Shown here in pieces: positions 11,478 through 64,000 of a DNA stretch of 64,000 bases (position 1 is its first letter; each line of letters starts with the position of its first letter). The stretch lies in the IMG/VR virus record IMGVR_UViG_3300010883_000008, positions 2,668 through 66,667 of that record, one strand, 5' to 3'. The DNA is from a virus. Taxonomy: Duplodnaviria; Heunggongvirae; Uroviricota; Caudoviricetes. The notes beneath the pieces are model-generated. The model had not been told where the DNA came from. It saw only the letters and a list, made by a program, of their open reading frames with translations, and ran no database searches. The translations under genes were made by a program, and so were the position numbers.

Positions 11478-11560
11478 AGTCTGTGTCCATAGGTGTGATA
11501 ACTAAAACAGGGCCACTACCCCATGAGAGCAGCGACCCTGAACCAATCCCCCAAGGAAGG

Positions 11561-12568: not shown

Positions 12569-12609
12569 GGTAAATCTCCTTGGGAGGGTGTAAAGGTTTC
12601 AATAGCGAT

Positions 12610-12638
12610 AGTATAGACCACCGCTGATAGTGTGTCAA
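12610..12638 (-). promoter_or_regulatory. sigma70-like promoter (TTGACA-17-TATACT) reading into gene 11561-12568
   Basis: The minus strand reads TTGACA (12633-12638), a 17-nt spacer, then TATACT (12610-12615). It lies in a 76-nt intergenic gap. Confidence 0.4.
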
Positions 12639-12644
12639 TTGGGG

Positions 12645-20312: not shown

Positions 20313-20322
20313 CCAGACTTAA

Positions 20323-20844
20323 TCATTTGTAAACCTCCGAAAAAGAAAAAGATATATCGCCTTCATATTTTTTTTGAATGTGAATAGCGGCAATACCGTT
20401 TCCCATTCCCCATCCCAACTTACTTCCTGTTGCATAGTGTCGTATCTCTTTGATACCGCCATATTCATATATACTTCTAATTAATCCGTCGCTAAGAAAA
20501 AACTTCCAAGTTGGCATAAGCCAAACACTATTATCAGATAAAGTTAGTCCGTGCAAAATAAATTTTCTATACTTTGAAAATGGTGGATTTGTTATTATCC
20601 AATCAACCTTCTCATTGTAATTATAGAAATCTTTTCCCATAGAAATCTCACAAAAGGGTGAGCCTTCGGGCAAAAATTTATGTATATTGCCGATACCATA
20701 ACATGGTTCTAAAACTTTACCTTCGGGTTCAAACCACTTTATCATATCTTTTGCTACGATTTCGGGAGTCCAAGTTTCATCACCGCTCATTTGTAGTGGT
20801 CCTGGGATAGTTGAATAATTGCATCCACCACCGTTATTTCGCAA
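20323..20844 (-). CDS. N6-adenine DNA methyltransferase (gamma-class order, motif I before NPPF), orphan
   Basis: 173 aa. Motif I-like EPCYGIGNI, then ITNPPF. The whole ORF is visibly AT-rich (roughly 36% G+C by eye, the rest of the window about 55%). Confidence 0.6.
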   Translation of the reverse strand: MRNNGGGCNYSTIPGPLQMSGDETWTPEIVAKDMIKWFEPEGKVLEPCYGIGNIHKFLPEGSPFCEISMGKDFYNYNEKVDWIITNPPFSKYRKFILHGLTLSDNSVWLMPTWKFFLSDGLIRSIYEYGGIKEIRHYATGSKLGWGMGNGIAAIHIQKKYEGDISFSFSEVYK

Positions 20845-31670: not shown

Positions 31671-32318
31671 CTATTCAGCTTCCGTGATGACATCTGCAAT
31701 ATCAGTCATGTGTAACAGACTCAACCCAGTTGCAAAATCGGCTAAGGACAACCGTATGACCTTGATGCCGAAATGTCTCAGTTCCTCGCGTAATTGGGTA
31801 CTCAGATCTTCCCGACACTTTTTAGAATCGGCCAGTAGTTCACTGTAGTTATTATCGCAGATTACTTTGGAGATAGCAACTAGTGCAAAATCGTGCGAAG
31901 TGTCGTCATAGTCGTGGGTCTCGCATAAAAGTGCCCTTACGTCATGGATCTCATAGATCAGGACTCCCCGAAGGTGGAGCGGTTTATTGTCTCGGGTCGT
32001 GAGTTTCTGCTTAGGCAGATAGGTGGTCTGTCGCTTGATGGGGACGATTGTGGGAACATGGGTCACTAAGGGCCAGTACCAATGGATGCCTGTCAGCCTC
32101 CACCAGTTATCCCACCTACTCCAAAGAACGGGACGGAAAAGACCTTGAAGAAACATCCATCTAGGCCACCACATCCCGTTTGTATGGGTGAGTACTTTCA
32201 CATCCGCACCCCGAGTCCATTTGACCCCGGCTTGCGTAGAGTTAACTACCTCGAAATGAGGCAGAAACAAGACTATAAATTCAAATAGCCTTGTCAAGAC
32301 TGGAAACAATTCACCCAT
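31671..32318 (-). CDS. SPFH/band-7 (stomatin/HflK-like) domain membrane protein, putative
   Basis: 215 aa. N-terminal hydrophobic segment. GVKWTRG...GIHWYWPLV...TTRDNKPLHLRGVLIYEIHD...REDLSTQLREELRHFGIKVIRLSLADF follows the SPFH pattern. Confidence 0.45.
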   Translation of the reverse strand: MGELFPVLTRLFEFIVLFLPHFEVVNSTQAGVKWTRGADVKVLTHTNGMWWPRWMFLQGLFRPVLWSRWDNWWRLTGIHWYWPLVTHVPTIVPIKRQTTYLPKQKLTTRDNKPLHLRGVLIYEIHDVRALLCETHDYDDTSHDFALVAISKVICDNNYSELLADSKKCREDLSTQLREELRHFGIKVIRLSLADFATGLSLLHMTDIADVITEAE

Positions 32319-34255: not shown

Positions 34256-36026
34256 CAGTATCTAATATCCCTTGAGGTATGTGTGAGGCGTCATGGCCTA
34301 GCTGCCAAACTTCGTGCAGCATCCCGCCATGTATTCGCTCTCGTATCAGTTCTTCAAGGTCATGCCTTCGAGTATGGGTCTGATTCACCAAAGTGGTGAA
34401 GTCTTCCGCAGATTGTACTGGGATGTTCCAATCGCCTGAGGGCTCGTTCCACAACAAGATCCACTTGTACTCCCCGAGACGAGCTTGAAATTCATCTACG
34501 AAAGATTGCCCCGTACCCGCAGCATCCGCCTCAGCATAGATCAAGTCTCGGACCCCAGTTAGAATCAGTATATCAGCTTTGGGCCAAGTATCAAGCAAGT
34601 CTTGTTCCCGTAGGTTCAATTTTGCGAGCATCCCCGCCTTTTCGATAGCTTTGGCGTTGGGTTCCAGCCCCGTGATGTCTAACCCATGTTCCGAGCAAGC
34701 CTTAACGAGTTCCCCCGAGAAGCTCCCCACCTCAAGGATTTTAGGGTCATCCTCCAATCGTTTCAACACCTCAGGAAGGATCTCCATGGATGCCTTAAAG
34801 TGCATCGCAGGTTTGTACCCCCATCGGGACTCTAGCCAACAGGTCTCCGGAGGATTAGCCGCACAGATTTCAGTGACCGCTTTCTCCCACAGATCCATAA
34901 CAGGGTCAATACTGAAAGTATCCGTCACGTGACGTTGAGCCTTTTCCGTAGCAGTCTTGATCCGTTCAGGGTCCTCAAAGAACCACTGGGTTGTGGCGAC
35001 CATCTGATTCACATCCGGCACCTGCCAAAGCGTTCCCAAACGTTCTTCTTTGAACGCAGGGTTGATTAGCATTGGACAATGCTCCGAGCCCATTAGCTCA
35101 GGCATCGTTGTGGTGTTGTTGAGAATCTGGAGTACTCCCAAGGCCGCAGCCTCAATCGTAGGCACCCCGAATCCTTCACCTTGTGAGGTAGTCAGACGAA
35201 CATCCGACATCTGCATCAGTTCCCCGACCTCCTCGTGTTCCAGTCCCCGACTCCAGTCGAATCCCGTAAAGGTCACATCTTCCCGAACGTCGTACATACG
35301 AGCTACTTTGGACAAATCGTACCCGTCCTGCCCACTGGGACCCTTTTGATGCATTATGGTGTGTGCAATCAAATGCACATCCTTATCCGGCCATGCTTTC
35401 TTTAATTGCCGGATGTAGTCGAAGGTCGCGTCCCACCGCTTGTGCCAAATGTTCCTGTCGCAGTTCAAGACTAAAAAGGTGTCGTCATGCAGAGGAACGT
35501 GGAGCTTCTTAGCCCATTTCCGCCGCAGGGCGTGCTTATCCACTTCAACATTGAGCTTGAACTTCTCAGGGTCCAGCATGTGAGGAATGACCCAATCCGA
35601 AGGGGCCTGTTTCTCCCACATAGTTTGAGCATATTCCGACAGATGAATTACCCGGTCTTTAGGCACCTCCAGAAAATAATCTCGACCATTCCAGGGGAGT
35701 TCGCTACCTTCCCACGGAAGCCAGAACAGTACAGGGATGTTTCTGGGGGCAAACTTTAGAGCCGACATGTCCAGGCATTGTTGAGTGTGATAGAAGACTA
35801 TGACACAGTCCGGTCGAATCTTCTCCAACTCACGGTCAATTACCGCGACCTTATCTAGTTCACGTATATGCCAACAGACAAGGTCATCTTCCTCGAAGGT
35901 GGGGGGGTTATTCGCCAGGATATAAACTTGATGGCCCCGGTCTCGGAATCCCCGAGCCAGCATACCCATCTGCATACCAAATCCTGAGGGTAAGTTAGGA
36001 CTTTCCCCGATCAGCACGATTCTCAT
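34248..36026 (-). CDS. bifunctional glycosyltransferase (GT4-like) plus class I SAM methyltransferase
   Basis: 592 aa. GT-B signature TSQGEGFGVPTIEAAALGV. C-terminal MTase motif I ILEVGSFSGELVKACSEHGLDITGLE. Confidence 0.65.
   Translation of the reverse strand: MRIVLIGESPNLPSGFGMQMGMLARGFRDRGHQVYILANNPPTFEEDDLVCWHIRELDKVAVIDRELEKIRPDCVIVFYHTQQCLDMSALKFAPRNIPVLFWLPWEGSELPWNGRDYFLEVPKDRVIHLSEYAQTMWEKQAPSDWVIPHMLDPEKFKLNVEVDKHALRRKWAKKLHVPLHDDTFLVLNCDRNIWHKRWDATFDYIRQLKKAWPDKDVHLIAHTIMHQKGPSGQDGYDLSKVARMYDVREDVTFTGFDWSRGLEHEEVGELMQMSDVRLTTSQGEGFGVPTIEAAALGVLQILNNTTTMPELMGSEHCPMLINPAFKEERLGTLWQVPDVNQMVATTQWFFEDPERIKTATEKAQRHVTDTFSIDPVMDLWEKAVTEICAANPPETCWLESRWGYKPAMHFKASMEILPEVLKRLEDDPKILEVGSFSGELVKACSEHGLDITGLEPNAKAIEKAGMLAKLNLREQDLLDTWPKADILILTGVRDLIYAEADAAGTGQSFVDEFQARLGEYKWILLWNEPSGDWNIPVQSAEDFTTLVNQTHTRRHDLEELIRERIHGGMLHEVWQLGHDASHIPQGILDTDG
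35363..35378. repeat. degenerate palindrome family copy: GTGCAATCAAATGCAC
   Basis: One half site is altered (ATGCAC). It lies inside the GT-MT gene. Confidence 0.5.
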
Positions 36027-36044
36027 CTACTCATACTCCAAAGG

Positions 36045-36704
36045 TCATGAAATTTTGCGTAAAAATCCATCCGGATTGTAAGTTATTATGTACTTTTCCC
36101 GAGATTTGTCTATTTTGAAATGGTCATCTTCCAAAAGAAATTTGTCAATGCCCCCAAGAGGCCCTCCTCGGGACTTCGGCTTCCCCTTAATAAAGGAGGT
36201 AGCCCCATCTTCTACAATAAAGTAGCACCCTTCAGTCACCAAAGGGGACCACCGAACTAAATCGTCATACACGCCTTGTATGGAGTGATCCGCGTCTTGA
36301 ATGACCATAACTCGATCAGTAGGACGTATCCACTGTAGCACCCTAGAAATAGCCGCCTGATCTGTAGTGTTACCCACAACATGACGAACGTTGGGGTGCT
36401 TAATAGCACACGCTCGATGATCAACTCCGATAACCAGCCCCATAGGATGCTTCGCTTGCATAACGTCGGCTAGGTACATAGTTGACCCTCCGCGATACGT
36501 ACCCAACTCAATAATGATTGACGGGTTAGTCTCGTGAATGATCTCTTGATACACCTGCAAATCTAGGGGACTCTTGATCATTTCGACCCCCCTCCAATGC
36601 ATCTTGGACTTGTGGCGTTTACTACCGTTTACAGGGCACCCCAAAACGTGTTGTTGATGCCACAGTAACCACTCATCCAAATTCATATTCTCGTAAAACG
36701 TCAC
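36045..36704 (-). CDS. TylF/macrocin-type sugar O-methyltransferase (class I SAM MTase)
   Basis: 219 aa. IIELGTYRGGSTMYLADV resembles the TylF family motif (IVETGVYRGGS). Lower G+C towards the 3' end. Confidence 0.6.
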   Translation of the reverse strand: MTFYENMNLDEWLLWHQQHVLGCPVNGSKRHKSKMHWRGVEMIKSPLDLQVYQEIIHETNPSIIIELGTYRGGSTMYLADVMQAKHPMGLVIGVDHRACAIKHPNVRHVVGNTTDQAAISRVLQWIRPTDRVMVIQDADHSIQGVYDDLVRWSPLVTEGCYFIVEDGATSFIKGKPKSRGGPLGGIDKFLLEDDHFKIDKSREKYIITYNPDGFLRKIS

Positions 36705-37471
36705 GGAGTTCTCCTAGGTTTTGGAACTTGCACAGTAGATAGCTCTTTGGGAAATTTCGCAAAGTAATCAGTGTCGGGGGGCAACATACCTTCGTCCGAC
36801 AGCATCTCACGATGAACATCCGAAAACGGAGGGAAGCCTCGCAGATGATGCATGTACGAGTAGAATCTTTGGGAGTGGTGATCCTGACCCCCATACGAGA
36901 GTTGATGAACTACCTTAGCATTGCTCGTAGGCTTACCTCGATGGAGTTGCCTCATATCGAATGCAATAATATCTCCGGGGTTAGCCCTCAAAGTAACTAC
37001 CTTCCCAGGTTGTACCAACTTGGGATTTAGGTCCTTGTAATACGAGCCTGGGATAATCTGTAGAGGTTCGTTGGTAGCCTCAAAATACATGATGACTTTG
37101 AGACACCGGTACTCGACCTCGGGGTTCCAATCTCGGCCTCTACCGAAAACCTTGTTAGAACAGTCTCGATGCCAGTTACTCCGAAACTTTTCAATTTGCG
37201 GGCGGATGTTGTGAATGCTCCAAACTTTAGGCCCAATGCATTGGTGAACCACATCTAAAATCTCAGAACGTACACTAAGCCTATCCAACGCGGACTCAGC
37301 CCCGAAGTGGATCTTAAGGGCGGCCAATTCACGAATGCGGGCACCTAAGTAGAGGGCTTCTTCCTTGGGAATAACTCCCGGAAACAACTCAAAATGTTGG
37401 GCCTTATACGTCATTTTTCTTCCACACAGAGCCTTCCGGATGGTGGCACCCGTATTGCTCGGTCTCCTCAA
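36701..37471 (-). CDS. phytanoyl-CoA dioxygenase (PhyH) family 2OG-Fe(II) oxygenase
   Basis: 256 aa. NWHRDCS (HxD), distal MRQLHRGKPTSN His, IIAFD strand. Confidence 0.6.
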   Translation of the reverse strand: MRRPSNTGATIRKALCGRKMTYKAQHFELFPGVIPKEEALYLGARIRELAALKIHFGAESALDRLSVRSEILDVVHQCIGPKVWSIHNIRPQIEKFRSNWHRDCSNKVFGRGRDWNPEVEYRCLKVIMYFEATNEPLQIIPGSYYKDLNPKLVQPGKVVTLRANPGDIIAFDMRQLHRGKPTSNAKVVHQLSYGGQDHHSQRFYSYMHHLRGFPPFSDVHREMLSDEGMLPPDTDYFAKFPKELSTVQVPKPRRTP

Positions 37472-48423: not shown

Positions 48424-48912
48424 TTAGCTGTCGACGATGGTGCCAAACGTACCGTTGGCTAGTTTCAAGACTTCAAATTCGACTTCAAAAGCCGTCTCTT
48501 CATCCCGCTGCATGTTGTACTCACGCGATCCCATAGCGATACACTTGGTGAACGTGAAAGTACGAGTACCACATCCGGGGGATTGACCCACTAGGATAAT
48601 GGCTAATTCTTCGACCCAGCAGGCATTGTTATACCCGATAGTCAAAGTCGATCCGCCACCCGTCAGGTTAGACGCGGGCTGCATAAAGGCTTGACGCATA
48701 CGTTCAAGCGTGACTTCCAATAGCGTAGTCTGTACAAAGACAGACTCGTCCGTACGAGCTTTTCGCACCGTACCGACTGCTTGATCAGCTTTGATTGCGA
48801 GGAACTCGGGTTCGTAACGAACCACGACGCCGCCTTTTGTAAAGCCTACGTCCGAGCCACCAATCGAAACATCAGCAGCACCTACGATGATGTTGTCGGC
48901 ATTTCCAGCCAT
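48424..48912 (-). CDS. major tail (tube) protein, putative
   Basis: 162 aa. Composition is beta-rich with Gly/Thr/Val. Position is upstream of the chaperone and tape measure genes. Confidence 0.5.
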   Translation of the reverse strand: MAGNADNIIVGAADVSIGGSDVGFTKGGVVVRYEPEFLAIKADQAVGTVRKARTDESVFVQTTLLEVTLERMRQAFMQPASNLTGGGSTLTIGYNNACWVEELAIILVGQSPGCGTRTFTFTKCIAMGSREYNMQRDEETAFEVEFEVLKLANGTFGTIVDS

Positions 48913-49429: not shown

Positions 49430-49993
49430 TTAGATACCCATCATTCTTAGTTTGAACTTAGCCAATGTAGCTTGAACGAACTGTTTTTTGGTAGCCTCGA
49501 ACTGGGGCATAATAAAGGGATGCGGAACCGTACCGTTCTCCTCAATACTATCCTGAATGGACGCGGCTACCCTACGTGCGGTAGGTTCGTCCACCCCGTT
49601 CTTAACCATAACCCAGTCAACTAGTCTCTCATAGTCCGGAGAATGCGGGTCGGCCCCTTGCTCAACAGCCAAAGCATAGTCAACTTCGGACCCCATCAAC
49701 AAAGTAGCCCCGCCTCGGGTAGTTTGTCCGGCCTCCACAAACAGACTGTTGTACAGTTCCTCGGTGAAGACCATCTTTCCATCAACTACGGCTTCCTGCA
49801 TAGCGGGTAGGAAGATATCGTTTCCGGTCTCCTCCATAACGTCGGACATGAGTACGGTAGCTCCGCCTGCCATAAGGCGTAGTCGACGTATGATCCGGTC
49901 TCGGCCATCGAGCCTTATGGACATTCCAAAATTAGATGCCACTATGCGGCCTCCCCGTCGTCCCCGTGTACGTCCTCTAATTCTATGAAGCAC
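49430..49993 (-). CDS. head-tail joining (head closure-like) protein, by position
   Basis: 187 aa with an Arg-rich N terminus. Confidence 0.4.
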   Translation of the reverse strand: MLHRIRGRTRGRRGGRIVASNFGMSIRLDGRDRIIRRLRLMAGGATVLMSDVMEETGNDIFLPAMQEAVVDGKMVFTEELYNSLFVEAGQTTRGGATLLMGSEVDYALAVEQGADPHSPDYERLVDWVMVKNGVDEPTARRVAASIQDSIEENGTVPHPFIMPQFEATKKQFVQATLAKFKLRMMGI

Positions 49994-50627: not shown

Positions 50628-51344
50628 TTAAATGCGGAAAAATGTACCTAACCCGTTGTCATGCGTTCCCCGCTTATCCGGAACAGCCATGAACAGACTG
50701 GAGTAATTGATGTGATCTTCCAACAATCGATCAACAGCTACGAATCCGGTTCGTCCCCCGAACGCATCCGAGCCTTTGAAGGTTACAGTAAAGTCATTCC
50801 AGACAGCTTGTTTCACGTCAGTGTTAGCCATCTTAGCCGCACCGGGAATCAGAGCTTCCATAGTCAGTAAGATGGTGGCCTTTTTGATTGCCGGAGGAAC
50901 CGCCGCTCGACCCCAAGTTCCTTCCACATGAATGTTCTTTTGACCCCGGGGCCAGATACCTCCCCGACCGAAGCGAACTCGGGGACGATCATGGTCATGA
51001 CCTAGATCCATATCGACCCAATAATCGTACTTGATGAAATCGTCGTTCTCCGTGTAGGTCCGTAAAACCGTAGTCCCATCGATGTCGATCTCCTTGAGGG
51101 AGGTGATCGTCAAAAGTCTGTAGGAGGTGTCCGGGGGGAAGAACAACTTATGTAACCCGTTGCCATCAAACTGGTTAGTTTCCGTCTTCTCATAGAAACA
51201 GTCACCCGTGATAGAGTCAATCACGGCCTCTACTTCCTCAAGGCGGTCCTCAATTTCAGGATCGGTGTACTTGTAGAAGTTTTTGACTACGGTGCCCGCA
51301 ATCTTGTATTCGCGGATATTATCGGCTGTAGCGTAATTAGGCAT
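50628..51344 (-). CDS. head-tail connector (gp6-like), putative
   Basis: 238 aa. Position is immediately after the head genes. Confidence 0.4.
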   Translation of the reverse strand: MPNYATADNIREYKIAGTVVKNFYKYTDPEIEDRLEEVEAVIDSITGDCFYEKTETNQFDGNGLHKLFFPPDTSYRLLTITSLKEIDIDGTTVLRTYTENDDFIKYDYWVDMDLGHDHDRPRVRFGRGGIWPRGQKNIHVEGTWGRAAVPPAIKKATILLTMEALIPGAAKMANTDVKQAVWNDFTVTFKGSDAFGGRTGFVAVDRLLEDHINYSSLFMAVPDKRGTHDNGLGTFFRI

Positions 51345-51569: not shown

Positions 51570-51585
51570 GGGCAATTGGTTGCAC
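51570..51585. repeat. degenerate palindrome family copy: GGGCAATTGGTTGCAC
   Basis: Two mismatches to the consensus. It lies in a 43-nt intergenic gap. Confidence 0.45.
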
Positions 51586-51872
51586 TAGACAGATTTTGTA
51601 ACTACACCGAACGTGATATCCGCGTCCCCGCCGTCACCCTTAACAGTAACCTTTCGGATACCAATAGGGTTCAACCGAAAGATAATACTCTCCCCCGCGA
51701 CGAGGGGGAAGAATTCTCCCGCATCGTGAAGTCCTGGGATGTTAATCAAAGCCGGGAATCCCGAGCCTGAGGTAACACCCACCTTAAATTCTGTACAACC
51801 TGCGGTGATTCCCGTAGGTTCGTAAATGTCTGTACCTCCAACAGGTACGGTAGCTGATCCGGCAGATGCCAT
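51585..51872 (-). CDS. hypothetical head-associated protein
   Basis: 95 aa, Gly/Thr/Val-rich. Confidence 0.4.
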   Translation of the reverse strand: MASAGSATVPVGGTDIYEPTGITAGCTEFKVGVTSGSGFPALINIPGLHDAGEFFPLVAGESIIFRLNPIGIRKVTVKGDGGDADITFGVVTKSV

Positions 51873-51885
51873 GATTATATCCTAA

Positions 51886-52197
51886 TTAGGGTCGGGGAAT
51901 TTCGGGTACGTCTAGTTCGGGGTTATCTTGCTGTAATTGGGAGGCCCAATTCTGGTGTTCGTGTCTATACCATCGATCCACTTGGAGATTACGAATAGTA
52001 GCCTCCAAAAGAGTGATTCGTTTGTCCTGTGCTGCCGCGTTATGGTTTAGGCGTACAGTCTCTTCCATCAGAGCTTCAATTTTTGAAAGCCGACCTTGCA
52101 TTGTGTAAGCCCAAGGAACTCCTGCCAAAAGTATTGCTACCCCCAACCCTATAAGTGCCGTGAGTATATCTATCCGACTTCTGCCCGGGTTAGTCAT
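51886..52197 (-). CDS. membrane-anchored coiled-coil protein
   Basis: 103 aa. N-terminal helix ILTALIGLGVAILLAGVPWAY, then a heptad-like region. Confidence 0.4.
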   Translation of the reverse strand: MTNPGRSRIDILTALIGLGVAILLAGVPWAYTMQGRLSKIEALMEETVRLNHNAAAQDKRITLLEATIRNLQVDRWYRHEHQNWASQLQQDNPELDVPEIPRP

Positions 52198-52198
52198 G

Positions 52199-53368
52199 TT
52201 AGTTTCCTAGAAGTATCTCACGTATAGCTCGTCGCATTTCTTCGACGTTGCCCATAGCCACGCGGGCGGAACGGAAGGTGGAGGTCACTAGTAGGTGGGT
52301 CTCTTCCAAGATAATCACCCCTTTAGGGGAATCGCTAGGTCCAATATAGTCTCCATAGGTTTTGAAGTCAAAGTGGTCCCCGAGTTGTATCTCAAGTTCC
52401 GAAGTCTCCCCGCGTACCAGTATCAAAGGTCGCTCAGGCGGAGTTATGTCCCCGATTGCTCCGTCTCCCGTAGGGAGGGGTAAAGCGTCGAGTACTTTAG
52501 CCACGGTCACTGCGGCCATGCACTTGAATCCTGTTAAGTCGTCCACACGTAGGCTCCGTGTGGGCACCAAACCTGCGGTGGCATCGAATGCGTGAATACC
52601 GTGCAACGTCGGGTACTGGGCGATTACGTCGTCTGGGTGGGTAACTGAGAACAGCACGTGTCCCGGCACCCCTAACATCCCCGCCATGTGAGCAAAGCCT
52701 GAATCGTTGCCTATGAAGTAGCGACAATTCGAGAGCATCGACAACTGGATGGGAAGGGCCTCAGATTCGTCACTCGCTTTGTGTGAATGTTCGTGAATAA
52801 ACCCGTACTCGTCCGAAGTGCCCAACCAGAGGATACTGGCTCCCCCGACAATCAACCGTTTAGCTACCTCTTCAAATCGAGAGATCGGCCAACGTCGATT
52901 AGGGTTACTCGCTCCGGGGTGAATAGCCACCATGGGGCGACCTTCAAACAGAGTGGGTTGATAGGTCAGTGTAAACTGAGCGGGCCGAATGCTTAGACCA
53001 ATGTGGTCCCCGAACAGCTTGTAGTATTCTCCCTCACGTATTGTTCGGGATGTTGCAATCGCTCCCGAGAAGTCCAGCATGATGTCGAACTTTGATCGGA
53101 CTTGGGCATCGTTTAGTCGTTGGCCCTCCTCAACATAGTCGACCCCTCGAACCAGTCCCATCAAAGCTCCTTGATGGGGCATGACGGACGCCGTGATCTC
53201 ACAGTGATGAAGAGTCTTTAAGGCTTGAGCTACCCCGCCGATCCCCATCAAAACGTCCCCGACTCCCCCGGTATAGTGAAGACAAATCTTCTGACCTTTC
53301 CACGACTCCGGTAGAGTGCGTCGAGGTTCTTTAGGAGCAGCGGCTAAAACTGTGAAAGGTAAAGTCAT
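52199..53368 (-). CDS. glycosyltransferase family 9 (ADP-heptose:LPS heptosyltransferase-like)
   Basis: 389 aa. RYFIGNDSGFAHMAGMLGVPGHVLFSVTHPDD matches the GT9 C-terminal signature GNDSG..H.A.A.G.P...LFG.T.P. Confidence 0.6.
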   Translation of the reverse strand: MTLPFTVLAAAPKEPRRTLPESWKGQKICLHYTGGVGDVLMGIGGVAQALKTLHHCEITASVMPHQGALMGLVRGVDYVEEGQRLNDAQVRSKFDIMLDFSGAIATSRTIREGEYYKLFGDHIGLSIRPAQFTLTYQPTLFEGRPMVAIHPGASNPNRRWPISRFEEVAKRLIVGGASILWLGTSDEYGFIHEHSHKASDESEALPIQLSMLSNCRYFIGNDSGFAHMAGMLGVPGHVLFSVTHPDDVIAQYPTLHGIHAFDATAGLVPTRSLRVDDLTGFKCMAAVTVAKVLDALPLPTGDGAIGDITPPERPLILVRGETSELEIQLGDHFDFKTYGDYIGPSDSPKGVIILEETHLLVTSTFRSARVAMGNVEEMRRAIREILLGN

Positions 53369-53384: not shown

Positions 53385-53423
53385 ATAGAAAAAGGCCCGA
53401 CTGGCGATTATACCAGCCGAGCC
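53385..53423 (-). terminator. rho-independent terminator downstream of the major capsid gene
   Basis: Minus-strand RNA forms an 11-bp stem (GGCUCGGCUGG/CCAGUCGGGCC, 2 G-U pairs), an 8-nt loop, then UUUUUCUAU. The plus-strand version has C-A and A-C mismatches. Confidence 0.6.
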
Positions 53424-53461
53424 TTGTGTTCACAACTCATTCAGCTTAAGCGTTTGAAGGC

Positions 53462-54481
53462 TTAGCCGGTGTAGTCGGCACCTGACATCGCGACGTTTTT
53501 CGCCAAGATAACCAAGTCTTCGTTCTCAACTTCGCAGTCGATTCGGAAGTGGATAGTGACTTCCCACATATCCTGACGAGGTTTGCGGTCCCACTCGATG
53601 GTGATCTCGCGTTGGACGAAGTAGATCAGGTTGCTCGGAGGAGTCAACCAAACTTCGCTACCATCCGTACCCGCCGAGCCGTAGCTCAAATCTTCGGGCA
53701 TCAGGTAGATTTCTTCCCAAGGAACACCCCAGATGTTAGGGGCAGTACCTTCCGCCATCGAAGCATCGCCTCGGGCGGTTTCTCGGTCGGACCAGTCAAG
53801 CATCAGCTTGTCAGAAGGACCGGAAGGCAAGAGGAACCGGTACTCGGGTTTCGCGACTCGGTATCGCGAAGGAATCTTCCGCTTCATCTCGTAGTAGAGC
53901 AACTTCGAGGGAGCCGCACCCGCAGCATCGATTTGCTGAGCCGCAGGAACTCGATCCTTGAGGATCTTCGAGAAACCATCGTTCACGCCAAGCAAGTTGT
54001 TCTCGTCGGATTGAGCATCGCCAGTAGGCAAAGATGAGTCACCTTCGATCAACGCCAACTCGGTGTCGATAGAGATCCGCTTGCTGAACATGTTCAACAG
54101 CTTGTTACGGACAGCGGATTTCTCGATGTTGTCTTCGAGGAAATCGGTCTTGAGGTCGAACGCCGAACGATACTTCTCGGTATCGTACGTGACGATCCGC
54201 TCAGTCGGGTTGCGAGTACTCGCTTTGGAGGTCGTGTGGGCACCTTCCGTAACGATATTTCCAAGATCCAATTTGTTGATCTCACCCTTGGGGTGGTCAA
54301 CTTTCTTTGTGCGAATCATTTTCAACAGCTTCGACGTATTGACAACAAGGTCAATAAACGCATCGGCTTGCTGACGATTCAACACACTATTCGGCAAGGA
54401 AGTGTCGTCAATAGCAGACTTGCTAATGAGTTCTTCCAAAGGTAGTTTGACAGCAACGTCCATGGTATTTTCTCTCTTCAA
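53462..54481 (-). CDS. major capsid protein (HK97-fold), putative
   Basis: 339 aa. Sits between the scaffold/protease gene and the tail module. Strong terminator downstream. Confidence 0.6.
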   Translation of the reverse strand: MKRENTMDVAVKLPLEELISKSAIDDTSLPNSVLNRQQADAFIDLVVNTSKLLKMIRTKKVDHPKGEINKLDLGNIVTEGAHTTSKASTRNPTERIVTYDTEKYRSAFDLKTDFLEDNIEKSAVRNKLLNMFSKRISIDTELALIEGDSSLPTGDAQSDENNLLGVNDGFSKILKDRVPAAQQIDAAGAAPSKLLYYEMKRKIPSRYRVAKPEYRFLLPSGPSDKLMLDWSDRETARGDASMAEGTAPNIWGVPWEEIYLMPEDLSYGSAGTDGSEVWLTPPSNLIYFVQREITIEWDRKPRQDMWEVTIHFRIDCEVENEDLVILAKNVAMSGADYTG

Positions 54482-54538: not shown

Positions 54539-55618
54539 TTAGAAGGGCCAGAGACCACTTCCATTAAAGACGGCATTCGGGTCAGCAGCTTCGTCAGCGG
54601 CCTTCTTCTCGATAGCAATCTTTTCGTCGCGGTCCTCTACCACAGGAGTGGACTTTGCCACAGCCGTAGCCGATTTCTGGACATCTTCGACTTGCTTGGA
54701 CACAGCCAATAGGCCCGTCGCAAGCTGGTTCAACGTGTCGTTGACACTTGCCAAGTCGGCAGTCTTTGCAGTTTCCGTTTTCCCGGTTTCCGTTTCCGTA
54801 GTCTCATCGGTGTTGTCACCGTCAGGCTTAACCGCTTTGGGCTCTGCCAGTACGGCCAGTGTTTCAGCGGACTTTTGAGTCACTTCCGCTAGAGTTTTCA
54901 TGGTATCAGTGAGAGCTTCAAACGTCGGCTTGAGGCCATCAACAACAGCCGTGGCAGTAGCCGCAGCTACTTGATCCAAAGCGTTAGCTTGTTCGGTTTT
55001 CTTCTCGGCTTCGGCGGTTTTAGCAGCGTCAGCTTTTTTCGCGTCTTCGGCGGTTTTAGCAGCAGCATCGGCAACAGCTTTATCCGCAGCTTTTTTTACA
55101 TCGTCCTTAGTGAGGGATGTATCGGCCATTTCGTTCTCCTCGGAATTAAGTGTAGCGGAGGCAACCGCCTGTTTTGCAACGTCAGTGAGTTCTTGGAGCC
55201 AAGTGATCTGCCCCGGGCCGGATGTATCTTGCGTGACACCGGCCACGAAGAACACGCCTGAGTTCATTTTAGCTCGAACAAAAGTCTCAGCCCGAAACTT
55301 ACGTTCATTCTGGACACACACCCACGTAGAGTCGGCATCTCGAATATGTTCGTGTTGTAGTTTGCGTGACTTGAGATACTCGACGGCTTCTCCCTCAGAC
55401 GAAAAATGCGTTTTGTCTAACATCACATGCGAGAGGATCATAGGATCTCCATCGGCAGATTTTGCTACGACAAACGTCGAGGAGGGATTATCTGGAACAT
55501 TGACCAAGCTGATCTCATAGAGATCGATGTTGGTTAGCATCCGTTGGACGCCAGTTTCTACAGCCTTATACTCTACACGGACAAGTCCTCGCCAAGAGAA
55601 GGCTTGTAACTTGCCCAA
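54539..55618 (-). CDS. prohead protease / scaffold fusion, putative
   Basis: 359 aa. N-terminal approximately 150 aa globular domain. C-terminal approximately 170 aa Ala/Lys/Glu/Thr-rich coiled coil typical of scaffolding proteins. Confidence 0.45.
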   Translation of the reverse strand: MGKLQAFSWRGLVRVEYKAVETGVQRMLTNIDLYEISLVNVPDNPSSTFVVAKSADGDPMILSHVMLDKTHFSSEGEAVEYLKSRKLQHEHIRDADSTWVCVQNERKFRAETFVRAKMNSGVFFVAGVTQDTSGPGQITWLQELTDVAKQAVASATLNSEENEMADTSLTKDDVKKAADKAVADAAAKTAEDAKKADAAKTAEAEKKTEQANALDQVAAATATAVVDGLKPTFEALTDTMKTLAEVTQKSAETLAVLAEPKAVKPDGDNTDETTETETGKTETAKTADLASVNDTLNQLATGLLAVSKQVEDVQKSATAVAKSTPVVEDRDEKIAIEKKAADEAADPNAVFNGSGLWPF

Positions 55619-57055: not shown

Positions 57056-58993
57056 TTAGCCTTTCTTAGGTTTAGGCTTGCCCAGTTTTCCAGCCCCGCC
57101 ACCCGTGGGACCTTGCCGTCGACCCTCTTGAGCTTTAGCGGATGCTTGAGCTTTCGCACCCTTATCCTTCACACCTTGAGCGGCATTAGCTCCTTCATCC
57201 TTTACACCCTGCATGGTTTTATCCATGACGGACTGTTGTTTCAGACCTTCGATTTCGTCCTCCATCGCCTGGATGTTTTCGGACTTCATTTCGTCAATCT
57301 CGTCAAGGAAGATTAGACCCCCAGTGGTGTTGAGGAATGGGCGATCTCCGCCTTCCACCGCGTCCCCAAGTTGTCCACGCTTCTTAGCTTGATTGATCGA
57401 CAGTAATCCTTTGTCCACATACGCGATCAAGATATCTTTCTCCGCCGTGCGGTCCCGGATATCTAGGGGTGTATGGTGCATAGCAACCAACTTGACACCC
57501 AGACCTAAGCGGAACAGTCTATTGATGCACCCATCCCACCGTCGTTGGCATGGAGATACTATGCGATCTTTGTAGATTTCCGCTTGGCTCAAACCCTTAC
57601 CCGAGCCGAGTTCGCTAGACTCCGAGATACCGATGATAGCTGGACTGACACCGTGGGAGGTCATGATACCTTGGGCACCCGACTTACGGGTTTCAAGGAA
57701 TGAGCCTTCACGTTGGTCCGCGTCCAGTTTCTCAAACCGTACGGTCACTTCTCCCCGCAAAGCAGGCACGGGAATGATAAGCGTCTTATGCGGTTTACCT
57801 TTCACGTGAGTCGAGAAGTATTCCGCGATCATTCGCTTAACAGGATCAGCGACCTTAGCACCTTCGATGATGACAGCATATCGAGGGACTGTATTATGCT
57901 CAAAGTATTGCAGCAAGAAATCACGAATCTGTACGTTAGCTAGGAGGTGTCCCAAGGCGGGAACTATGTCCGGCATTCCGTAGTAGATCGTATTCGAGTG
58001 CAGCTTAGGTATGTAGACGATCTCGTTGGCAGATTGGTTGAAGTCTTTTGTAGGCTTGCCCGTCTCCCGATGGATCATCTTCCAATCGATCTTGGAGTTA
58101 GACATATCCAGTTCCCCATCCGTTAGGGGACTATAGGGGCGGAACCCACCGGGTTCTTCTTTGTCCACAACCTGGATTTTGTTCCCGAACAGTTGGTAGT
58201 ATCGGAATTTGGTTGGCGACAGGATCTCGACAAAGCCTTTCCAGCCTTTCAAAACCCGTAACCGGGAGGCGGGTAGGTGATTGATTTTACGGACTTTACC
58301 GTCTCGTGATCGGATGATCTCAACGACCCCCCAACCGATACTTTCGTAGTCCATACAGGCTTTAGACAGAACACCTTCAAACCCAATGATTGGGTGGCTA
58401 TCCTGAATGAAGTTTCGGATAAGCCCGATCTCCTCAGCCGCAGCTTTTTGTTGGGCGGTTTTATCGGTCTCTTTGTTACTTTGAGTGGGATCGTGATCCG
58501 TACCATCCTCAGATTGGACAGCTTCGATTTTGTATTCCCGACCGACCGAGTCAGTTACCTTGGTCTGGACGCATCGATAGTGAGTTTCCTCAACCTCCAA
58601 AAAGGCCGACAGGATCTCAGGGGGGTATGGGGGAGGTACAACCTTGATAGCACTTAGACCCAAATCCTCATCCGGGTCCACGTCCCGAAGCTCCTTCTTG
58701 CTTTGAGTCGAACCGTCAATGGACTTAGCCACTACTTCGAGTTCAGGGTGGGGAGCCTTATGCGGAGAATCCGCGTCAAGAGCAATGCGGTCTGAATCAA
58801 AGCATCGCATGGACATCTTGGCAATATCTGCCATGATATCGTCCGAGGATACAACCGTATCTTCGGCCCCCGCAATGAACACCTCTTCAATAGTAGGGAT
58901 CTCCTTGTCAGGGGAGTCCGCAAACTTCTCCATCATAGCCACAATAGGGTGGTCTTCTGACAGGCGTTCTACATCATCTTTGTCGTGAGCCAT
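57056..58993 (-). CDS. portal protein
   Basis: 645 aa, immediately downstream of the large terminase gene. Gly/Lys-rich C-terminal tail. Confidence 0.6.
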   Translation of the reverse strand: MAHDKDDVERLSEDHPIVAMMEKFADSPDKEIPTIEEVFIAGAEDTVVSSDDIMADIAKMSMRCFDSDRIALDADSPHKAPHPELEVVAKSIDGSTQSKKELRDVDPDEDLGLSAIKVVPPPYPPEILSAFLEVEETHYRCVQTKVTDSVGREYKIEAVQSEDGTDHDPTQSNKETDKTAQQKAAAEEIGLIRNFIQDSHPIIGFEGVLSKACMDYESIGWGVVEIIRSRDGKVRKINHLPASRLRVLKGWKGFVEILSPTKFRYYQLFGNKIQVVDKEEPGGFRPYSPLTDGELDMSNSKIDWKMIHRETGKPTKDFNQSANEIVYIPKLHSNTIYYGMPDIVPALGHLLANVQIRDFLLQYFEHNTVPRYAVIIEGAKVADPVKRMIAEYFSTHVKGKPHKTLIIPVPALRGEVTVRFEKLDADQREGSFLETRKSGAQGIMTSHGVSPAIIGISESSELGSGKGLSQAEIYKDRIVSPCQRRWDGCINRLFRLGLGVKLVAMHHTPLDIRDRTAEKDILIAYVDKGLLSINQAKKRGQLGDAVEGGDRPFLNTTGGLIFLDEIDEMKSENIQAMEDEIEGLKQQSVMDKTMQGVKDEGANAAQGVKDKGAKAQASAKAQEGRRQGPTGGGAGKLGKPKPKKG

Positions 58994-60697
58994 TTATCCG
59001 ATCCAAACATCTGAGATTTCGGTCTCTAGAATGATTTGATGTGCGAGCAGATCATACGAGTCGGCGTGACGTTGGTGATCTTTGCACTTCGACCATTCAA
59101 ATTTAAGGTTGCCCTTAGTATCCTCAACGACTTTACGGACAGGTCCGCACATTTCTGCCGTCCACTGTCCTTCAAGTATCGAGTTATAATTTTCGGGAAG
59201 TATTACTTTCCCTCGTCGTAGTGCCGCAAACGACCGGTCTAGACATTCAGTTCGATCCACGTTAATGATTCGATCTCGAACGTCATAATTCTTCCGGCGA
59301 TCTGCACCCTCTCCGCGATAGCGGCAAAGCCACACAGCACAAGGGGCAGTTTCTTGGAAGTCCTGAACGAGTGTGATCTCCGGCATAGAGTCCACAACCG
59401 CGTACTCTACATTGTACCGTTCGATCAGATCGTTAACTTCGTCAAGTTCTTTAAGTTTCCCAACGTAAATCAGCCTCCGAACCCCGCGAGGTTCCAACGC
59501 CGATATCCTAACGTCGAAAACACCCCCTATGTCCATTCCCAGCGAGCAGGGACCGTCATGACGATCATCTTCGATGTGGGCACAGGTATCCTTAATTACA
59601 AGGTTATACCCTTCTTCGACCGATCTGTCAAGAAGTTCAGTCGTAACCTTATTTCCGGATGCATTATAGGGGAGCCCTAAGTACGAGTTATAGAACACCT
59701 GCATCAAGGCAGGGTCCGTAACTGCATCAAGGAACTTTTGCCACATCTCCGACACCGAGTTGATCGGGGAGCAAAGCATCGAGATATGGTAGCCTTCGAT
59801 GTCACAATCTGGGACTAACGCCCGCCATTCCCCGCGAGGACTAGCCCGCTCCAACTCGCCCCCGCAGTCGGGGCAGATGCATTTCACTTCACGTCGACAT
59901 CCGGGTTCCCAATCTTTGTCCCGCAATCGATAGTCTACGATGTTACCATCCCTATCGGTGATATCTTCTACGACTACTTTGAACCAGTCAAGGTCGTGAT
60001 AGTTGTCACAGGCTAGGCAGGGAACGAACCACTTACGTTGATCGGACTTTTGATAGAAAGCATTGATACCCTTGCCCGAAAGTTTCGGGTTGCCCAGGTA
60101 TCGTTTGAACTGGTATCGAGAAGCTCGCAACCGGTCCAACGCGTATTCTACGTTCTCTTGGTCGCATTCGTCCACTTCTTCTACGAAGATGCAATCTGCG
60201 GGGAATTCCTTAAAGTCGGCAAGGACGTTCGACCCCACATACTTAATGACGCCTTTTCCAAAAGACTTAATCGCCACAGAGTCAAAGAACCCTTCGCCCA
60301 CAATTCGCTTGTATTCGGGGATGGTTGCACAGGGTCGGTTGACTCGGTTCTGGACATAGGTAGTACGCATCTCATATTTGGGTAGGACAAAGAAGACTGA
60401 GAGTCCCGCCATTGCACAGGATAGCTGATCAATTACAGCCCACTCAGACTTGAACGATTGTACCGAACCTTGTAGCACGATTACCCTAGCCGTAGAGTTA
60501 TACAACTCCTTGATATGCGGGTAGTGCGTAAAGTCCATCTTCTCACCACGCGTATTCTGGTGGTGATTCAATGCGAAGTCTTGCCGGATTTCCCGGATCT
60601 TCATCAACTTCTCATAGACCATCAACTCACGGCGGTCAGAAAACGGAAGTAGATCGGAGGGTTCTCCGCCTTCGGCAAGTTCCAGTTCGTCAGGCAT
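58994..60697 (-). CDS. terminase large subunit
   Basis: 567 aa. N-terminal ATPase (QGSVQSFKS, FVEEVDECD) and C-terminal nuclease-like region. Flanked by HTH small-terminase-like and portal genes. Confidence 0.7.
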   Translation of the reverse strand: MPDELELAEGGEPSDLLPFSDRRELMVYEKLMKIREIRQDFALNHHQNTRGEKMDFTHYPHIKELYNSTARVIVLQGSVQSFKSEWAVIDQLSCAMAGLSVFFVLPKYEMRTTYVQNRVNRPCATIPEYKRIVGEGFFDSVAIKSFGKGVIKYVGSNVLADFKEFPADCIFVEEVDECDQENVEYALDRLRASRYQFKRYLGNPKLSGKGINAFYQKSDQRKWFVPCLACDNYHDLDWFKVVVEDITDRDGNIVDYRLRDKDWEPGCRREVKCICPDCGGELERASPRGEWRALVPDCDIEGYHISMLCSPINSVSEMWQKFLDAVTDPALMQVFYNSYLGLPYNASGNKVTTELLDRSVEEGYNLVIKDTCAHIEDDRHDGPCSLGMDIGGVFDVRISALEPRGVRRLIYVGKLKELDEVNDLIERYNVEYAVVDSMPEITLVQDFQETAPCAVWLCRYRGEGADRRKNYDVRDRIINVDRTECLDRSFAALRRGKVILPENYNSILEGQWTAEMCGPVRKVVEDTKGNLKFEWSKCKDHQRHADSYDLLAHQIILETEISDVWIG

Positions 60698-62109: not shown

Positions 62110-63477
62110 TTAGCTCCGCTTTTTGTATAGATTTGCTGACCCAATAACCGGATCAGCATTCTCCACCAACCAGCGATGAAGGTTTCTGTGGGCACCAATC
62201 AGTATAACGTAGTTTCCGAAACCTGCATCATACTTCTTTGCCGCCAAATCTGCAAACTCTTTGAGAGTGAACTGTTCCGGCAACTCGGCGACCACCGCCG
62301 TAAACTTGTCGTCCCATTCTCGGAACGGAGTCCACGAACCTGCGATGTCCTCATTCATTATAGCGAGATACCCCGCTGCTGCAACTCCAATGTCGTGTTC
62401 CTCCACGAACTCAGCAACGATGGGAGCTACCATCTTACGAGCCTCGTCGTAATTCTCGAAACAATACTTGAGCAGGGCAAGCAATTCCGACTGACTGGAG
62501 TAGAAAAACGGGTAGTCTTTCCCCACCAGAGCATATGCCCAACTTAAGTTAGGTAGGAGTAGCGGGTTGCCCGTACAGAACTGCTCGGAAAGACCAAACG
62601 AAAAGCCCTCATCCTCGGACATGGAAACAGACACATGACACTGATTCATCAGCTTCAAGTAGTCCATATACGGGAGAGGTTCAAGGTATTGAACCTTCTC
62701 GAATTTATCCAAGTCCCGACGAGTCGCCGAACTGTTGGGATAGACGGACTTGATTTCCACGTCCAGCCCCATCCGGAAAATATCCTCGTAGGCCCCCAAA
62801 ACTTCCTTCCACCGTTTATTCGAGTTGAATCTCGCAGCAAAAAGCATCGTGAATTTGTCAAACTTGGAAACTTCCGGGTCCAGTGCAATCGATTGCACAA
62901 GTTCACAAGGGACTCCCTGGGACCGGATAAGTCCCGTATCCATTATGGACTGGGTGGAAGACGCCGACAAATACCGTCGAGCTTCCGTAATGGCAAACCC
63001 TTTTTCCCGAGCCGTGGGGAAGAACGTTCGACACTCTGACCATGAGACCGCACGTAGCTTAGTCTCCACCGAATTGTCGTTGGAGATAGGTGTCTGCACC
63101 CAGTACTCAGCGATAAACACGGGTATGTTAAGGGCTTCCGACATCTTGAACATGCGTTTGATGTTCGCCGCAATCACGTTCTTGGACGTGATAACCGCGT
63201 CTACTTGATACTTCCCATTGACCGGATTAAACAGAGCGTATAGCTCCGAACCAATGTACCCTTGAGCAGCCGAATAGGGATGCCAATGATCAAGGTAGAT
63301 ATACCTCACATTCGGGAGCTTACAATCGTCAGGGATTTCCGCATCTTTATTGATGGGGATAAAGCAGGTTATCTCGGGCCATTGCCGAGCGAACTGCATC
63401 CATGTCACAAAGTCGGACTCCCGCCATACGGTCTTGCGGGTAGATATCAGGGGTAGAATCAGCAGCTTAGTGATCAT
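62110..63477 (-). CDS. glycosyltransferase (GT-B fold, GT4-like), putative
   Basis: 455 aa. MSEDEGFSFGLSEQFCTGNPLL resembles the GT-B signature. It contains the palindrome copy at 62880-62901. Confidence 0.5.
   Translation of the reverse strand: MITKLLILPLISTRKTVWRESDFVTWMQFARQWPEITCFIPINKDAEIPDDCKLPNVRYIYLDHWHPYSAAQGYIGSELYALFNPVNGKYQVDAVITSKNVIAANIKRMFKMSEALNIPVFIAEYWVQTPISNDNSVETKLRAVSWSECRTFFPTAREKGFAITEARRYLSASSTQSIMDTGLIRSQGVPCELVQSIALDPEVSKFDKFTMLFAARFNSNKRWKEVLGAYEDIFRMGLDVEIKSVYPNSSATRRDLDKFEKVQYLEPLPYMDYLKLMNQCHVSVSMSEDEGFSFGLSEQFCTGNPLLLPNLSWAYALVGKDYPFFYSSQSELLALLKYCFENYDEARKMVAPIVAEFVEEHDIGVAAAGYLAIMNEDIAGSWTPFREWDDKFTAVVAELPEQFTLKEFADLAAKKYDAGFGNYVILIGAHRNLHRWLVENADPVIGSANLYKKRS
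62880..62901. repeat. palindrome family copy, 22-mer: CCAGTGCAATCGATTGCACAAG
   Basis: Identical 22-mer to the copy at 56111-56132. Confidence 0.9.
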
Positions 63478-64000
63478 ATCATCTGTAGGTCGAAGTTACC
63501 CGACTTACTTTCCTGTAGTTGTAGATAGGACTCAACGATATCTGGGGTCAGATTGTAATCGTGCGACCGAGCAAGGGAGAAGTGAGTATCATATTTGTAG
63601 CTGTCAGTGCCTAGTTCGTGCATGGGTTGGGACAAGACCGAGATAATATACCCGTCGAAATCCACGTCTTGACAGAACTCAAGAGTCTGTTGGTATTCTT
63701 CTGGGGTAGTGTCTCCCCCAAGCATCAAGTAGGCCCCGACTTTGATGCCCGCATCTCGCATGATTTCGGTAGCGGTGGCTACCCCGTCTGCAACTTGGTT
63801 CTTTTTCATGCCCTTGTTGAATTGTCGACCGACGTTCTCCACGCCGATCTTGACATAGTCCACCCCAATACTGGCACATATCGGACCCAACTCAGGACTC
63901 TTGTTGATCAGCACCGCCCGACCTTCCGCCGTAAAGCGTAAGTCTTCCATACGTTGCCGCTTCAACTCTTGATCCAGATTCCGAAGACGCGGAGCGTTCC
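63474..64000 (-). CDS. radical SAM enzyme, C-terminal part (gene continues beyond the window edge)
   Basis: The reading frame is open to position 64000. VKIGVENVGRQFNKGMKKNQVADGVATATEIMRDAGIKVGAYLMLGGDTTPEEYQQTLEFCQ matches the C-terminal half of radical SAM domains. Confidence 0.45.
   Translation of the reverse strand, partial: NAPRLRNLDQELKRQRMEDLRFTAEGRAVLINKSPELGPICASIGVDYVKIGVENVGRQFNKGMKKNQVADGVATATEIMRDAGIKVGAYLMLGGDTTPEEYQQTLEFCQDVDFDGYIISVLSQPMHELGTDSYKYDTHFSLARSHDYNLTPDIVESYLQLQESKSGNFDLQMI

Follow-up and report, generated by a model that had tools for sequence, protein, structure and literature searches.

An apparently phage-restricted GT9-fold glycosyltransferase encoded in the head module of a tailed phage, and its possible role in virion glycosylation

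The stretch of viral DNA analysed here, referred to below as the window, is a 64,000-nucleotide segment of the IMG/VR record IMGVR_UViG_3300010883_000008 and carries, immediately downstream of an HK97-type major capsid gene, a gene for a protein with the fold of glycosyltransferase family 9 (GT9). This protein belongs to a new GT9 subfamily that appears to be restricted to phages and has its own domain architecture and a characteristic genomic position. The kind of activity that is suggested for it is already known, either as phage-encoded virion glycosylation or as protein-directed GT9 enzymes. It is tentatively proposed, as close to an even call, that the gene is expressed late in infection and specifies an active enzyme that glycosylates a protein of the virion. 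Of the possible targets the capsid would be the likeliest, given that related phages persistently carry the gene next to that for the capsid.

A GT9 fold with intact catalytic motifs

The open reading frame (ORF) of the GT9-like gene occupies exactly the span given in the original prediction, which had recognised the family from a C-terminal signature. This peptide, GNDSGFAHMAGMLGVPGHVLFSVTHP, corresponds to residues 220–245, and the assignment that was based on it is far beyond chance. Pfam PF01075 (Glyco_transf_9) matches the protein with 50.6 bits against a cutoff of 22 (E 2.1e-13), and a precomputed match to the same family is present in 49 of the 50 homologs. The Pfam match is limited to residues 130–247, and the remaining assignment comes from structure and from the family alignment. 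The AlphaFold2 (AF2) model, which has a predicted local distance difference test (pLDDT) value of 92.2, displays a GT-B fold with two Rossmann domains that is nearest to the solved GT9 enzymes, and a Foldseek search with the model supports the GT9 fold, the GT9 structures aligning over only 236–264 residues of the protein. The assignment is confirmed as right at the level of fold and superfamily, with the catalytic motifs intact.

Conservation was assessed over 24 aligned homologs that are 29–59% identical to the window protein, and the family was aligned with Salmonella WaaF and WaaC taken from locus L010, with the WaaC numbering checked on the sequence itself. The main motifs are listed in Table 1. 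Within the N-terminal GGVGD motif D38 aligns with D13 of both WaaC and WaaF and is the putative catalytic base, whilst the HPGASNPNRRW motif aligns to WaaF (1psw) and to WaaC and places R158 at the position of WaaC K192. The further WaaC counterparts are T187/T188 for A153/S154, E222 for D186, and D261/T262/G263/H266 for D222/S223/G224/H227. Across the 24 homologs D38, R158, D186, D222, S223, G224 and H227 are all invariant or nearly so, and D38, R158 and D222 are strictly invariant; these three occupy the positions of D13, K192 and D261, which are important for catalysis or donor binding in WaaC. Catalytic positions that stay invariant in a family otherwise only 29–59% identical are the mark of an enzyme whose activity is maintained by selection. 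The protein is apparently a catalytically competent, cytoplasmic GT9-fold (GT-B) glycosyltransferase.

The database gene call for the window protein, P0001 (349 aa), begins at M41 and would drop the GGxGD motif. Since the homologs align from about residue 14, the upstream ATG is judged from the sequences to be the right start.

Departures from the lipopolysaccharide heptosyltransferases

With the lipopolysaccharide (LPS) core enzymes WaaF and WaaC (PDB 1psw, 2h1h) the window protein has in common the N-terminal GD motif, the PGA..(K/R)RWP loop and the (N/V)D(S/T)GxxH motif, and it probably also shares with them an inverting chemistry and an ADP- or nucleoside diphosphate-sugar donor. Its scores indicate that it is not an ortholog of either enzyme. 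The WaaF equivalog model TIGR02195 gives 40 bits against a cutoff of 134.6, the WaaC model TIGR02193 gives 28.3 against 185.3 and PRK10916 gives 31.8 against 569. Moreover, the acceptor (N) domain is only about 110 aa long and has an isoelectric point (pI) of 6.55 (family mean 7.2), compared with 165–170 aa and pI values of 9.75 and 9.94 in WaaF and WaaC. The domain is thereby some 55 aa shorter, several of the WaaC/WaaF loops being deleted, and the whole protein is acidic, with a pI of 5.96. In WaaC and WaaF this N-terminal domain binds the anionic Kdo2-lipid A (Kdo being 3-deoxy-D-manno-oct-2-ulosonic acid), whereas the window protein has no full-length basic version of it.

At the opposite end of the protein, the canonical crossover helices (residues 278–295) are followed by an appended C-terminal region of about 95 aa, delineated by DSSP of the model and with pLDDT values of 76–91. 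WaaF and WaaC end at about residue 296 in the alignment and have no counterpart of this region. It is the least conserved part of the protein (mean 22% identity to the window protein) although R383 within it is invariant, and some relatives, of about 290–320 aa, lack it. The gene also differs from those for WaaC and WaaF in its location, which is a phage head module and not the LPS core cluster of a cellular genome.

The donor sugars named in the original prediction for family 9 enzymes were heptose or Kdo. Heptose stands as the family default, but Kdo has to be set aside, as the Kdo transferases form family GT30 and not GT9.

Distribution of the family

A word-indexed search returned 50 full-length homologs, all of them metagenomic and many on contigs of 40–105 kb, and 109 representatives at E<=1e-30 came out of a profile search run exhaustively over 1.84 billion. 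A pattern scan that covered 185,579 bacterial and archaeal species, each by a single genome, turned up no family member and gave only partial matches, of no more than 34% identity, to generic GT9 nucleotide-sugar (C) domains in unrelated metagenome-assembled genomes. Deposited phages also gave no family member in a tblastn search of 50,697 phage records; the five weak matches were to Campylobacter phage records, Salmonella genome records and one record labelled Escherichia phage, and none was to a mycobacteriophage. The family therefore appears to be phage-restricted, and as no copy is found in the bacterial and archaeal genomes there is no sign of prophage carriage. The nearest cultured phages are only 21–29% identical in terminase and capsid. 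Some of the source samples are marine.

A Foldseek search of BFVD gave only distant phage proteins of GT9 fold (14–18% identity, E 1e-11 to 1e-9). These proteins of uncultured phages in UniProt and BFVD, such as A0A6J5SVC1 ('Aah/TibC') and A0A6J7WHE7 ('RfaF'), resemble the window protein in their GT9-like fold and their origin in tailed phages, and some are multidomain proteins of about 900–1000 aa, like the fusions described below. Their identity of 14–18% means that they are not members of the window family.

Genomic position in related phages

The original prediction had placed the gene between the capsid and the neck genes and this proves to be correct, with the capsid gene upstream, separated by an intergenic gap of 93 nt, and the head-tail adaptor and Neck1 genes downstream. 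Related contexts were gathered through exact protein look-up, a profile scan of IMG/VR and a capsid-first scan, and when collapsed at 90% identity they represent 18 lineages besides the window. The GT9-like gene lies in the head module in 16 of these 18 non-redundant lineages, and in 13 a capsid gene, whose product is 50–73% identical to that of the window, ends no more than 260 nt upstream of the GT9-like match. The arrangement varies in detail. Locus L055 has a 988-aa GT9-GT4 fusion after the capsid gene, with a 74-aa ORF between them, locus L007 has a LAGLIDADG endonuclease (7209–7868) between the two genes, and in the lineage L031/L043 the GT9-like gene is still found between capsid and adaptor but with 2.9 kb of small genes intervening.

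The GT9-like protein diverges much faster (31–47% identity) than the capsid protein (50–73%). The slot between capsid and adaptor is otherwise variable, and relatives carry extra GT8- or GT2-like genes there. Three GT9-negative relatives with the same capsid type (50–65% identical) have no GT9-like match in the 1.4–5 kb of sequence available downstream.

Some other features of these loci were observed. In L042 a LAGLIDADG homing endonuclease (6111–7337) takes the place of the GT9-like gene; the 408-aa ORF in this slot was considered as a very divergent GT9 and ruled out, with an hhalign probability of 0.05%. The capsid ORF stops short in both L007 and L047, a sign that this gene may contain an intron or intein. 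Of the proteins encoded between capsid and GT9-like gene in L043, one (6381–7142) has a weak BclA_C-like match (E 1e-3, below cutoff), BclA being a heavily glycosylated exosporium fibre protein. In L034 (2975–5937) a family member of 34% identity is flanked by two matches to 'DNA polymerase exonuclease subunit' PHROGs (phrog_403, phrog_192), an arrangement that looks like an insertion splitting a polymerase gene region and would make the gene a mobile cassette.

Expression signals around the gene

The 93-nt gap between the capsid stop codon and the GT9-like gene contains a terminator-like hairpin followed by a run of T. The z-score of the hairpin against shuffled sequences is modest (-1.96). 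Relatives with a gap of at least 60 nt keep a GC-rich hairpin and T-run at this place, in sequences that are unrelated, and it is this conservation, and not the energy alone, that gives the hairpin its weight. It is probably an attenuator or a terminator. No terminator-like site is present directly after the GT9-like gene, where the nearest lies about 435 nt downstream, inside the ORF for a 95-aa protein (p95), and the ATG of the next ORF is found only two bases past the GT9-like stop codon. Together these features make the gene part of what would be a late head-to-neck gene string. Less of the GT9-like protein than of the capsid protein is probably made, a pattern more in keeping with an enzyme than with a structural protein needed in stoichiometric amounts or a moron that is expressed on its own.

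A promoter-like site is also seen at 53407–53435 on the minus strand (TTGTGA, a 17-nt spacer, TATAAT and an extended -10 TG). It overlaps the hairpin, with TATAAT in the loop, and may reflect chance or a coupled terminator and promoter.

Other sugar enzymes and glycosyltransferase fusions

The phage encodes its own set of glycosyltransferases (GTs), in which the GT9-like enzyme is joined by a GT4-methyltransferase fusion, a GT matching phrog_30253 and an O-methyltransferase of CmcI type. The methyltransferase-like part of the GT4 fusion (aa 415–477) scores 22.9 bits with PF13489, below the cutoff of 27. In relatives the GT9 core is itself fused to other GT domains, as GT9-GT4, GT2-GT4-GT9-GT4 and GT9-GT2, which implies that it carries out one step in a multi-sugar assembly. 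A Rosetta-stone tie between the GT4 part of the fusions and either the GT4-methyltransferase or the third GT of the window was sought and no BLASTP similarity was found, which leaves just the general point that the core is joined to other GTs.

The presence of LAGLIDADG/Hom_end domains in one GT9-GT2 fusion (P0124) points to an intein. The GT4 fusion and the CmcI-type gene form a sugar-modification cluster (34248–37471, minus strand) directly after the tail genes, which also includes an adjacent 256-aa ORF without an assigned family; methylated sugars on a phage particle would be unusual. The third GT adjoins a radical S-adenosylmethionine (SAM)-like ORF (63474–63965; PF04055, 24.1 bits, below the cutoff of 29.5), and a ParB-like gene and the terminase genes follow shortly downstream of the two.

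A possible route to a glycosylated virion

In the favoured scheme the gene would be transcribed late with the head genes, and read-through of the terminator-like hairpin would yield abundant capsid message and less of the enzyme. The enzyme would follow the standard GT9 scheme of inverting transfer, with the aspartate of the GD motif (D38) as base, and would move a sugar onto a virion protein from a nucleotide sugar, by family default ADP-heptose. The best candidate for the acceptor would be the major capsid protein or another protein of the head surface. The other phage GTs and sugar methyltransferases may then extend or modify the glycan, to give a glycan-coated particle. Glycosylation of capsid or tail tube had been put forward in the original prediction, and whilst it remains conditional the idea is strengthened by the head-module position in 16 of 18 lineages, the conserved hairpin, the GT4/GT2 fusions and the further sugar enzymes.

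A number of observations weigh against this scheme. Among 23 capsid proteins from GT9-positive and GT9-negative phages no feature, such as a Ser/Thr-rich tail or an indel, was found to track with the gene. The capsid proteins are equally conserved in the two groups, which share the C-terminal SGxDYTG and the TTSKASTR loop. No genes for ADP-heptose synthesis were seen in the window, so the donor ADP-heptose would have to come from the host. The lysine at position 192 of WaaC is replaced by an invariant arginine (R158), which is a conservative change. Two lineages depart from the head-module position, since in L026 the GT9-like gene comes after a tail-fibre-like gene (phrog_16641, E 2e-16) and in L034 it has DNA-polymerase exonuclease fragments on either side. 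Some phages of the capsid clade dispense with the gene. Moreover, the sampled phages are all of this one capsid clade, and shared ancestry, rather than a functional tie, could account for part of the synteny. Finally, the slot after the capsid gene also takes homing endonucleases (L007, L042) and may merely be tolerant of insertions.

A more specific version of the scheme, that the phage-only GT9 branch is a capsid-directed protein glycosyltransferase whose C-terminal domain docks it to the HK97-fold capsid protein or the procapsid, is regarded as doubtful.

Alternative acceptors and functions

It is possible that the acceptor is some other virion protein, such as the tail fibre, the tail tube or p95, and that the position beside the capsid gene is historical. 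The location after a tail-fibre-like gene in L026 is in keeping with this, as are the lack of any capsid feature that tracks with the gene and the 2.9 kb that separate gene and capsid in L031/L043, where the gene follows the weakly BclA_C-like protein. Tail-tube subunits are glycosylated in mycobacteriophages too, according to PMC12619734. Against this, direct adjacency to the capsid gene is kept in 13 of the 18 lineages, p95 is also present in a GT9-negative relative, and no positive evidence singles out any particular alternative acceptor. An acceptor elsewhere in the virion is considered unlikely.

The enzyme might instead remodel the host envelope, adding a sugar to the LPS core or to another envelope glycolipid or polysaccharide and so blocking superinfection or the re-adsorption of progeny to lysing cells. 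This role in superinfection exclusion was the second suggestion of the original prediction. It draws on the fact that the characterised close structural neighbours are all LPS-core enzymes, with the exception of TibC, and that phage and prophage GT9 genes are usually annotated in this way, as LPS-modifying auxiliary or 'defence' genes (PMC10449497, PMC10747093). The promoter-like site over the upstream hairpin is loosely moron-like and the gene is dispensable within the capsid clade. However, the scores fall far under the WaaF and WaaC equivalog cutoffs, and the acceptor domain, in which WaaC/WaaF loops amounting to some 55 aa are missing, lacks their basic character (pI 6.6 vs 9.8–9.9). Without a terminator directly after it, and with the next ORF two bases on, the gene does not form an independent moron unit and sits in what would be a late structural string. 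It is absent from the 185,579 bacterial and archaeal genomes, no integrase is found among the window ORFs of at least 300 aa, and the head-module position is held across 31–47% identity. Envelope remodelling is thus disfavoured, and is considered distinctly unlikely.

Hypermodification of DNA, in which sugars would be put on modified phage bases for restriction evasion as with the T4 beta-glucosyltransferase (beta-GT) and recently described phage GT-B enzymes, is very improbable. Phage GT-B enzymes with unusual DNA sugars do exist, a Kdo adduct having been deduced from its mass and heptose put forward on the grounds of pocket size (bioRxiv 10.1101/2023.12.21.572611), and the gene in L034 lies among DNA-polymerase gene fragments. 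Yet Pfam and PHROGs scans of the larger window ORFs gave no hydroxymethylase, TET/JBP-type or 5-hydroxymethylcytosine/5-hydroxymethyluracil (5hmC/5hmU) gene, and the protein is acidic (pI 5.96) in contrast to the positively charged DNA-binding groove between the Rossmann folds of those enzymes (bioRxiv 10.1101/2023.12.21.572611). Its best structural matches are GT9 enzymes, with T4 beta-GT not among the top 50–60 matches listed, and in 16 of 18 lineages the gene is in the head module and not in a nucleotide-metabolism module.

Just as improbable is a non-catalytic, exapted GT9 fold that serves as an assembly chaperone, scaffold accessory or capsid decoration, comparable to the GT9-fold PnsB1 of the chloroplast NDH complex: the head-module location and an appended C-terminal domain that could be a docking module would fit, but the donor-binding and catalytic positions are invariant in a family only 29–59% identical, the core is fused to other GT domains in relatives, the upstream hairpin suggests a lower dose than that of the capsid protein, and relatives with the same capsid type dispense with the gene.

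Comparison with known glycosylation systems

Protein-directed enzymes with the GT9 fold have a precedent in TibC, which is encoded next to its substrate gene, and in Aah, the iron-finger of TibC/Aah being made of four cysteines. The window family does not share this iron-binding cluster, as it has no invariant cysteine, although positions 29 (58%) and 56 (71%) are often Cys. TibC and Aah make up the BAHT family (PDB 4rap, 4rb4), for which a dodecameric ring is the characteristic assembly, whereas the model of the window protein is of a monomer. The TibC structures are titled 'iron-containing' in PDB. TibC is a protein heptosyltransferase and so follows the same logic as the model proposed here, but it is only 14–15% identical to the window protein. 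TibC/Aah act on an autotransporter, whereas the window enzyme would act on a structural protein of the phage. Judged against WaaF and WaaC, the appended C-terminal domain seems peculiar to the window family.

To our knowledge, demonstrations of virion glycosylation in tailed phages are essentially confined to a few mycobacteriophages, in which it changes recognition by antibodies. Glycosylation of mycobacteriophage virions by phage-encoded GTs was reportedly described by Freeman et al. in 2023. PMC12363180 and PMC12619734 present the GTs of Che8 (gp108–110), Corndog (gp38) and Myrna as glycosylating capsid and tail-tube subunits, giving a glycan-coated particle. The precedent that the original prediction drew from these phages is therefore real, but it does not extend to homology: no similarity between the window protein and mycobacteriophage GTs was detected by tblastn over the 50,697 phage records. 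As in the window, several GTs are found per phage. Glycosylation has been demonstrated in the mycobacteriophages, whereas here it is deduced from the genes, and the present system differs further in its GT9-fold enzyme, its usual place directly beside the capsid gene and its uncultured hosts. Full-text literature searches returned no description of a GT9-type gene conserved beside a phage capsid gene.

Further features of the window

All genes of the 64-kb window are read from the minus strand and its layout resembles that of a tailed-phage genome (Table 1). In the order of reading it has a small terminase/helix-turn-helix protein, the large terminase (58994–60697), the portal (57056–58993) and a MuF-like protein, and continues with the scaffold-like gene, the major capsid gene, the GT9-like gene, three small ORFs of 103, 95 and 65 aa, the head-tail adaptor and Neck1/tail completion. 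Further along come an immunoglobulin-domain tail-tube-like protein (48424–48912), a 1231-aa tape measure and a replication module (DnaB, primase, PolA, RecA-like).

Table 1. Positions of the GT9-like gene, its motifs and associated features in the window
Feature	Position	Strand	Details
GT9-fold glycosyltransferase gene	52199..53368	minus	ATG start, 389 aa
N-terminal GGVGD motif (residues 34-38)	53255..53269	minus	G35, G37, D38 invariant in 24 family members
HPGASNPNRRW motif (residues 150-160), phosphate-binding loop of the nucleotide-sugar domain	52889..52921	minus	H150, N155, N157, R158, W160 invariant
Signature GNDSGFAH... (residues 220-245)	52634..52711	minus	G220, D222, S223, G224, F225, H227 invariant
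Family-specific appended C-terminal region (residues ~297-389)	52202..52480	minus	Linker, small alpha/beta domain, terminal helix PE..RRAIRE
Terminator-like hairpin + TTTTT	53387..53425	minus	14-bp stem, 8 G-C pairs, 6-nt loop; centroid -24.7 kcal/mol
Major capsid protein gene (HK97-type), candidate acceptor	53462..54481	minus	phrog_1623, E 5.8e-62
Scaffold or prohead-protease-like gene, upstream of capsid gene	54539..55618	minus	Position kept, 27-43% identity in relatives
103-aa ORF, by eye hydrophobic N-terminal segment and coiled coil	51886..52197	minus	Weak Rz-like spanin match, E 9e-4
p95, 95-aa small head-module protein, Gly/Thr/Val-rich	51585..51872	minus	26-52% identity in most related loci
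Head-tail adaptor, downstream edge of variable head-module slot	50628..51344	minus	phrog_442, E 3e-14; conserved in relatives
Neck1/tail-completion gene	49430..49993		phrog_5
CmcI / rhamnosyl O-methyltransferase family protein	36045..36704	minus	PF04989, E 2.4e-37
GT4 glycosyltransferase fused to methyltransferase-like domain, 592 aa	34248..36026	minus	PF00534, E 2.2e-10 over aa 181-356
Third glycosyltransferase-like gene, 455 aa, upstream of terminase genes	62110..63477	minus	phrog_30253 'glycosyltransferase', E 4.2e-20; weak PF13524 match

For the capsid ORF, the TTG listed as start (54481) probably lies six codons upstream of the true one, as the relatives begin at a Met that matches residue 7. 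The L009 homolog of the scaffold or prohead-protease-like gene has a faint Peptidase_S78 match. For the 103-aa ORF no homolog was found in the related loci. The p95 gene, which also occurs in one GT9-negative related locus, has no match to any PHROG or Pfam family; its product may be a head decoration or connector accessory protein, and is an alternative candidate acceptor.

Elsewhere the GC content is raised to 0.54–0.57 (vs about 0.51) at 6441–13000 on the minus strand, a region that holds a 940-aa ORF without a Pfam or PHROG family and a 527-aa MoxR/CbbQ-type AAA+ ATPase (9349–10932), whilst the kilobase at 20001–21000 is low in GC (0.43). Between the sugar cluster and the replication genes an SPFH/Band-7 family protein (31671–32318, minus, E 1e-16) adjoins a 396-aa protein (30460–31650) whose N-terminus matches sigma-70 region 4. 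No tRNAs were found in the window.

Significance

The routine practice of entering phage GT9 genes as auxiliary metabolic genes for an 'LPS heptosyltransferase' calls for caution. The proposal can be tested without the native host, since E. coli supplies ADP-heptose. If correct, it would extend the protein acceptors of the GT9 fold from autotransporters to a second kind, and would provide a compact enzyme-plus-substrate pair for glyco-engineering. Should the capsid-directed version hold, the enzyme would be the first of GT9 to act on a structural protein of a virus, a widespread uncultured aquatic clade with genomes of about 100 kb would coat its heads with heptose-initiated, partly methylated glycans, and virion glycosylation would be common well beyond the actinobacteriophages. 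A conserved GT beside the capsid gene in about 100 sequence clusters of environmental phages would suggest that sugar-coated particles are common, and such coats could have effects on adsorption, on how sticky the particles are and how they decay, on grazing, and on recognition by the immune systems of hosts or animals.

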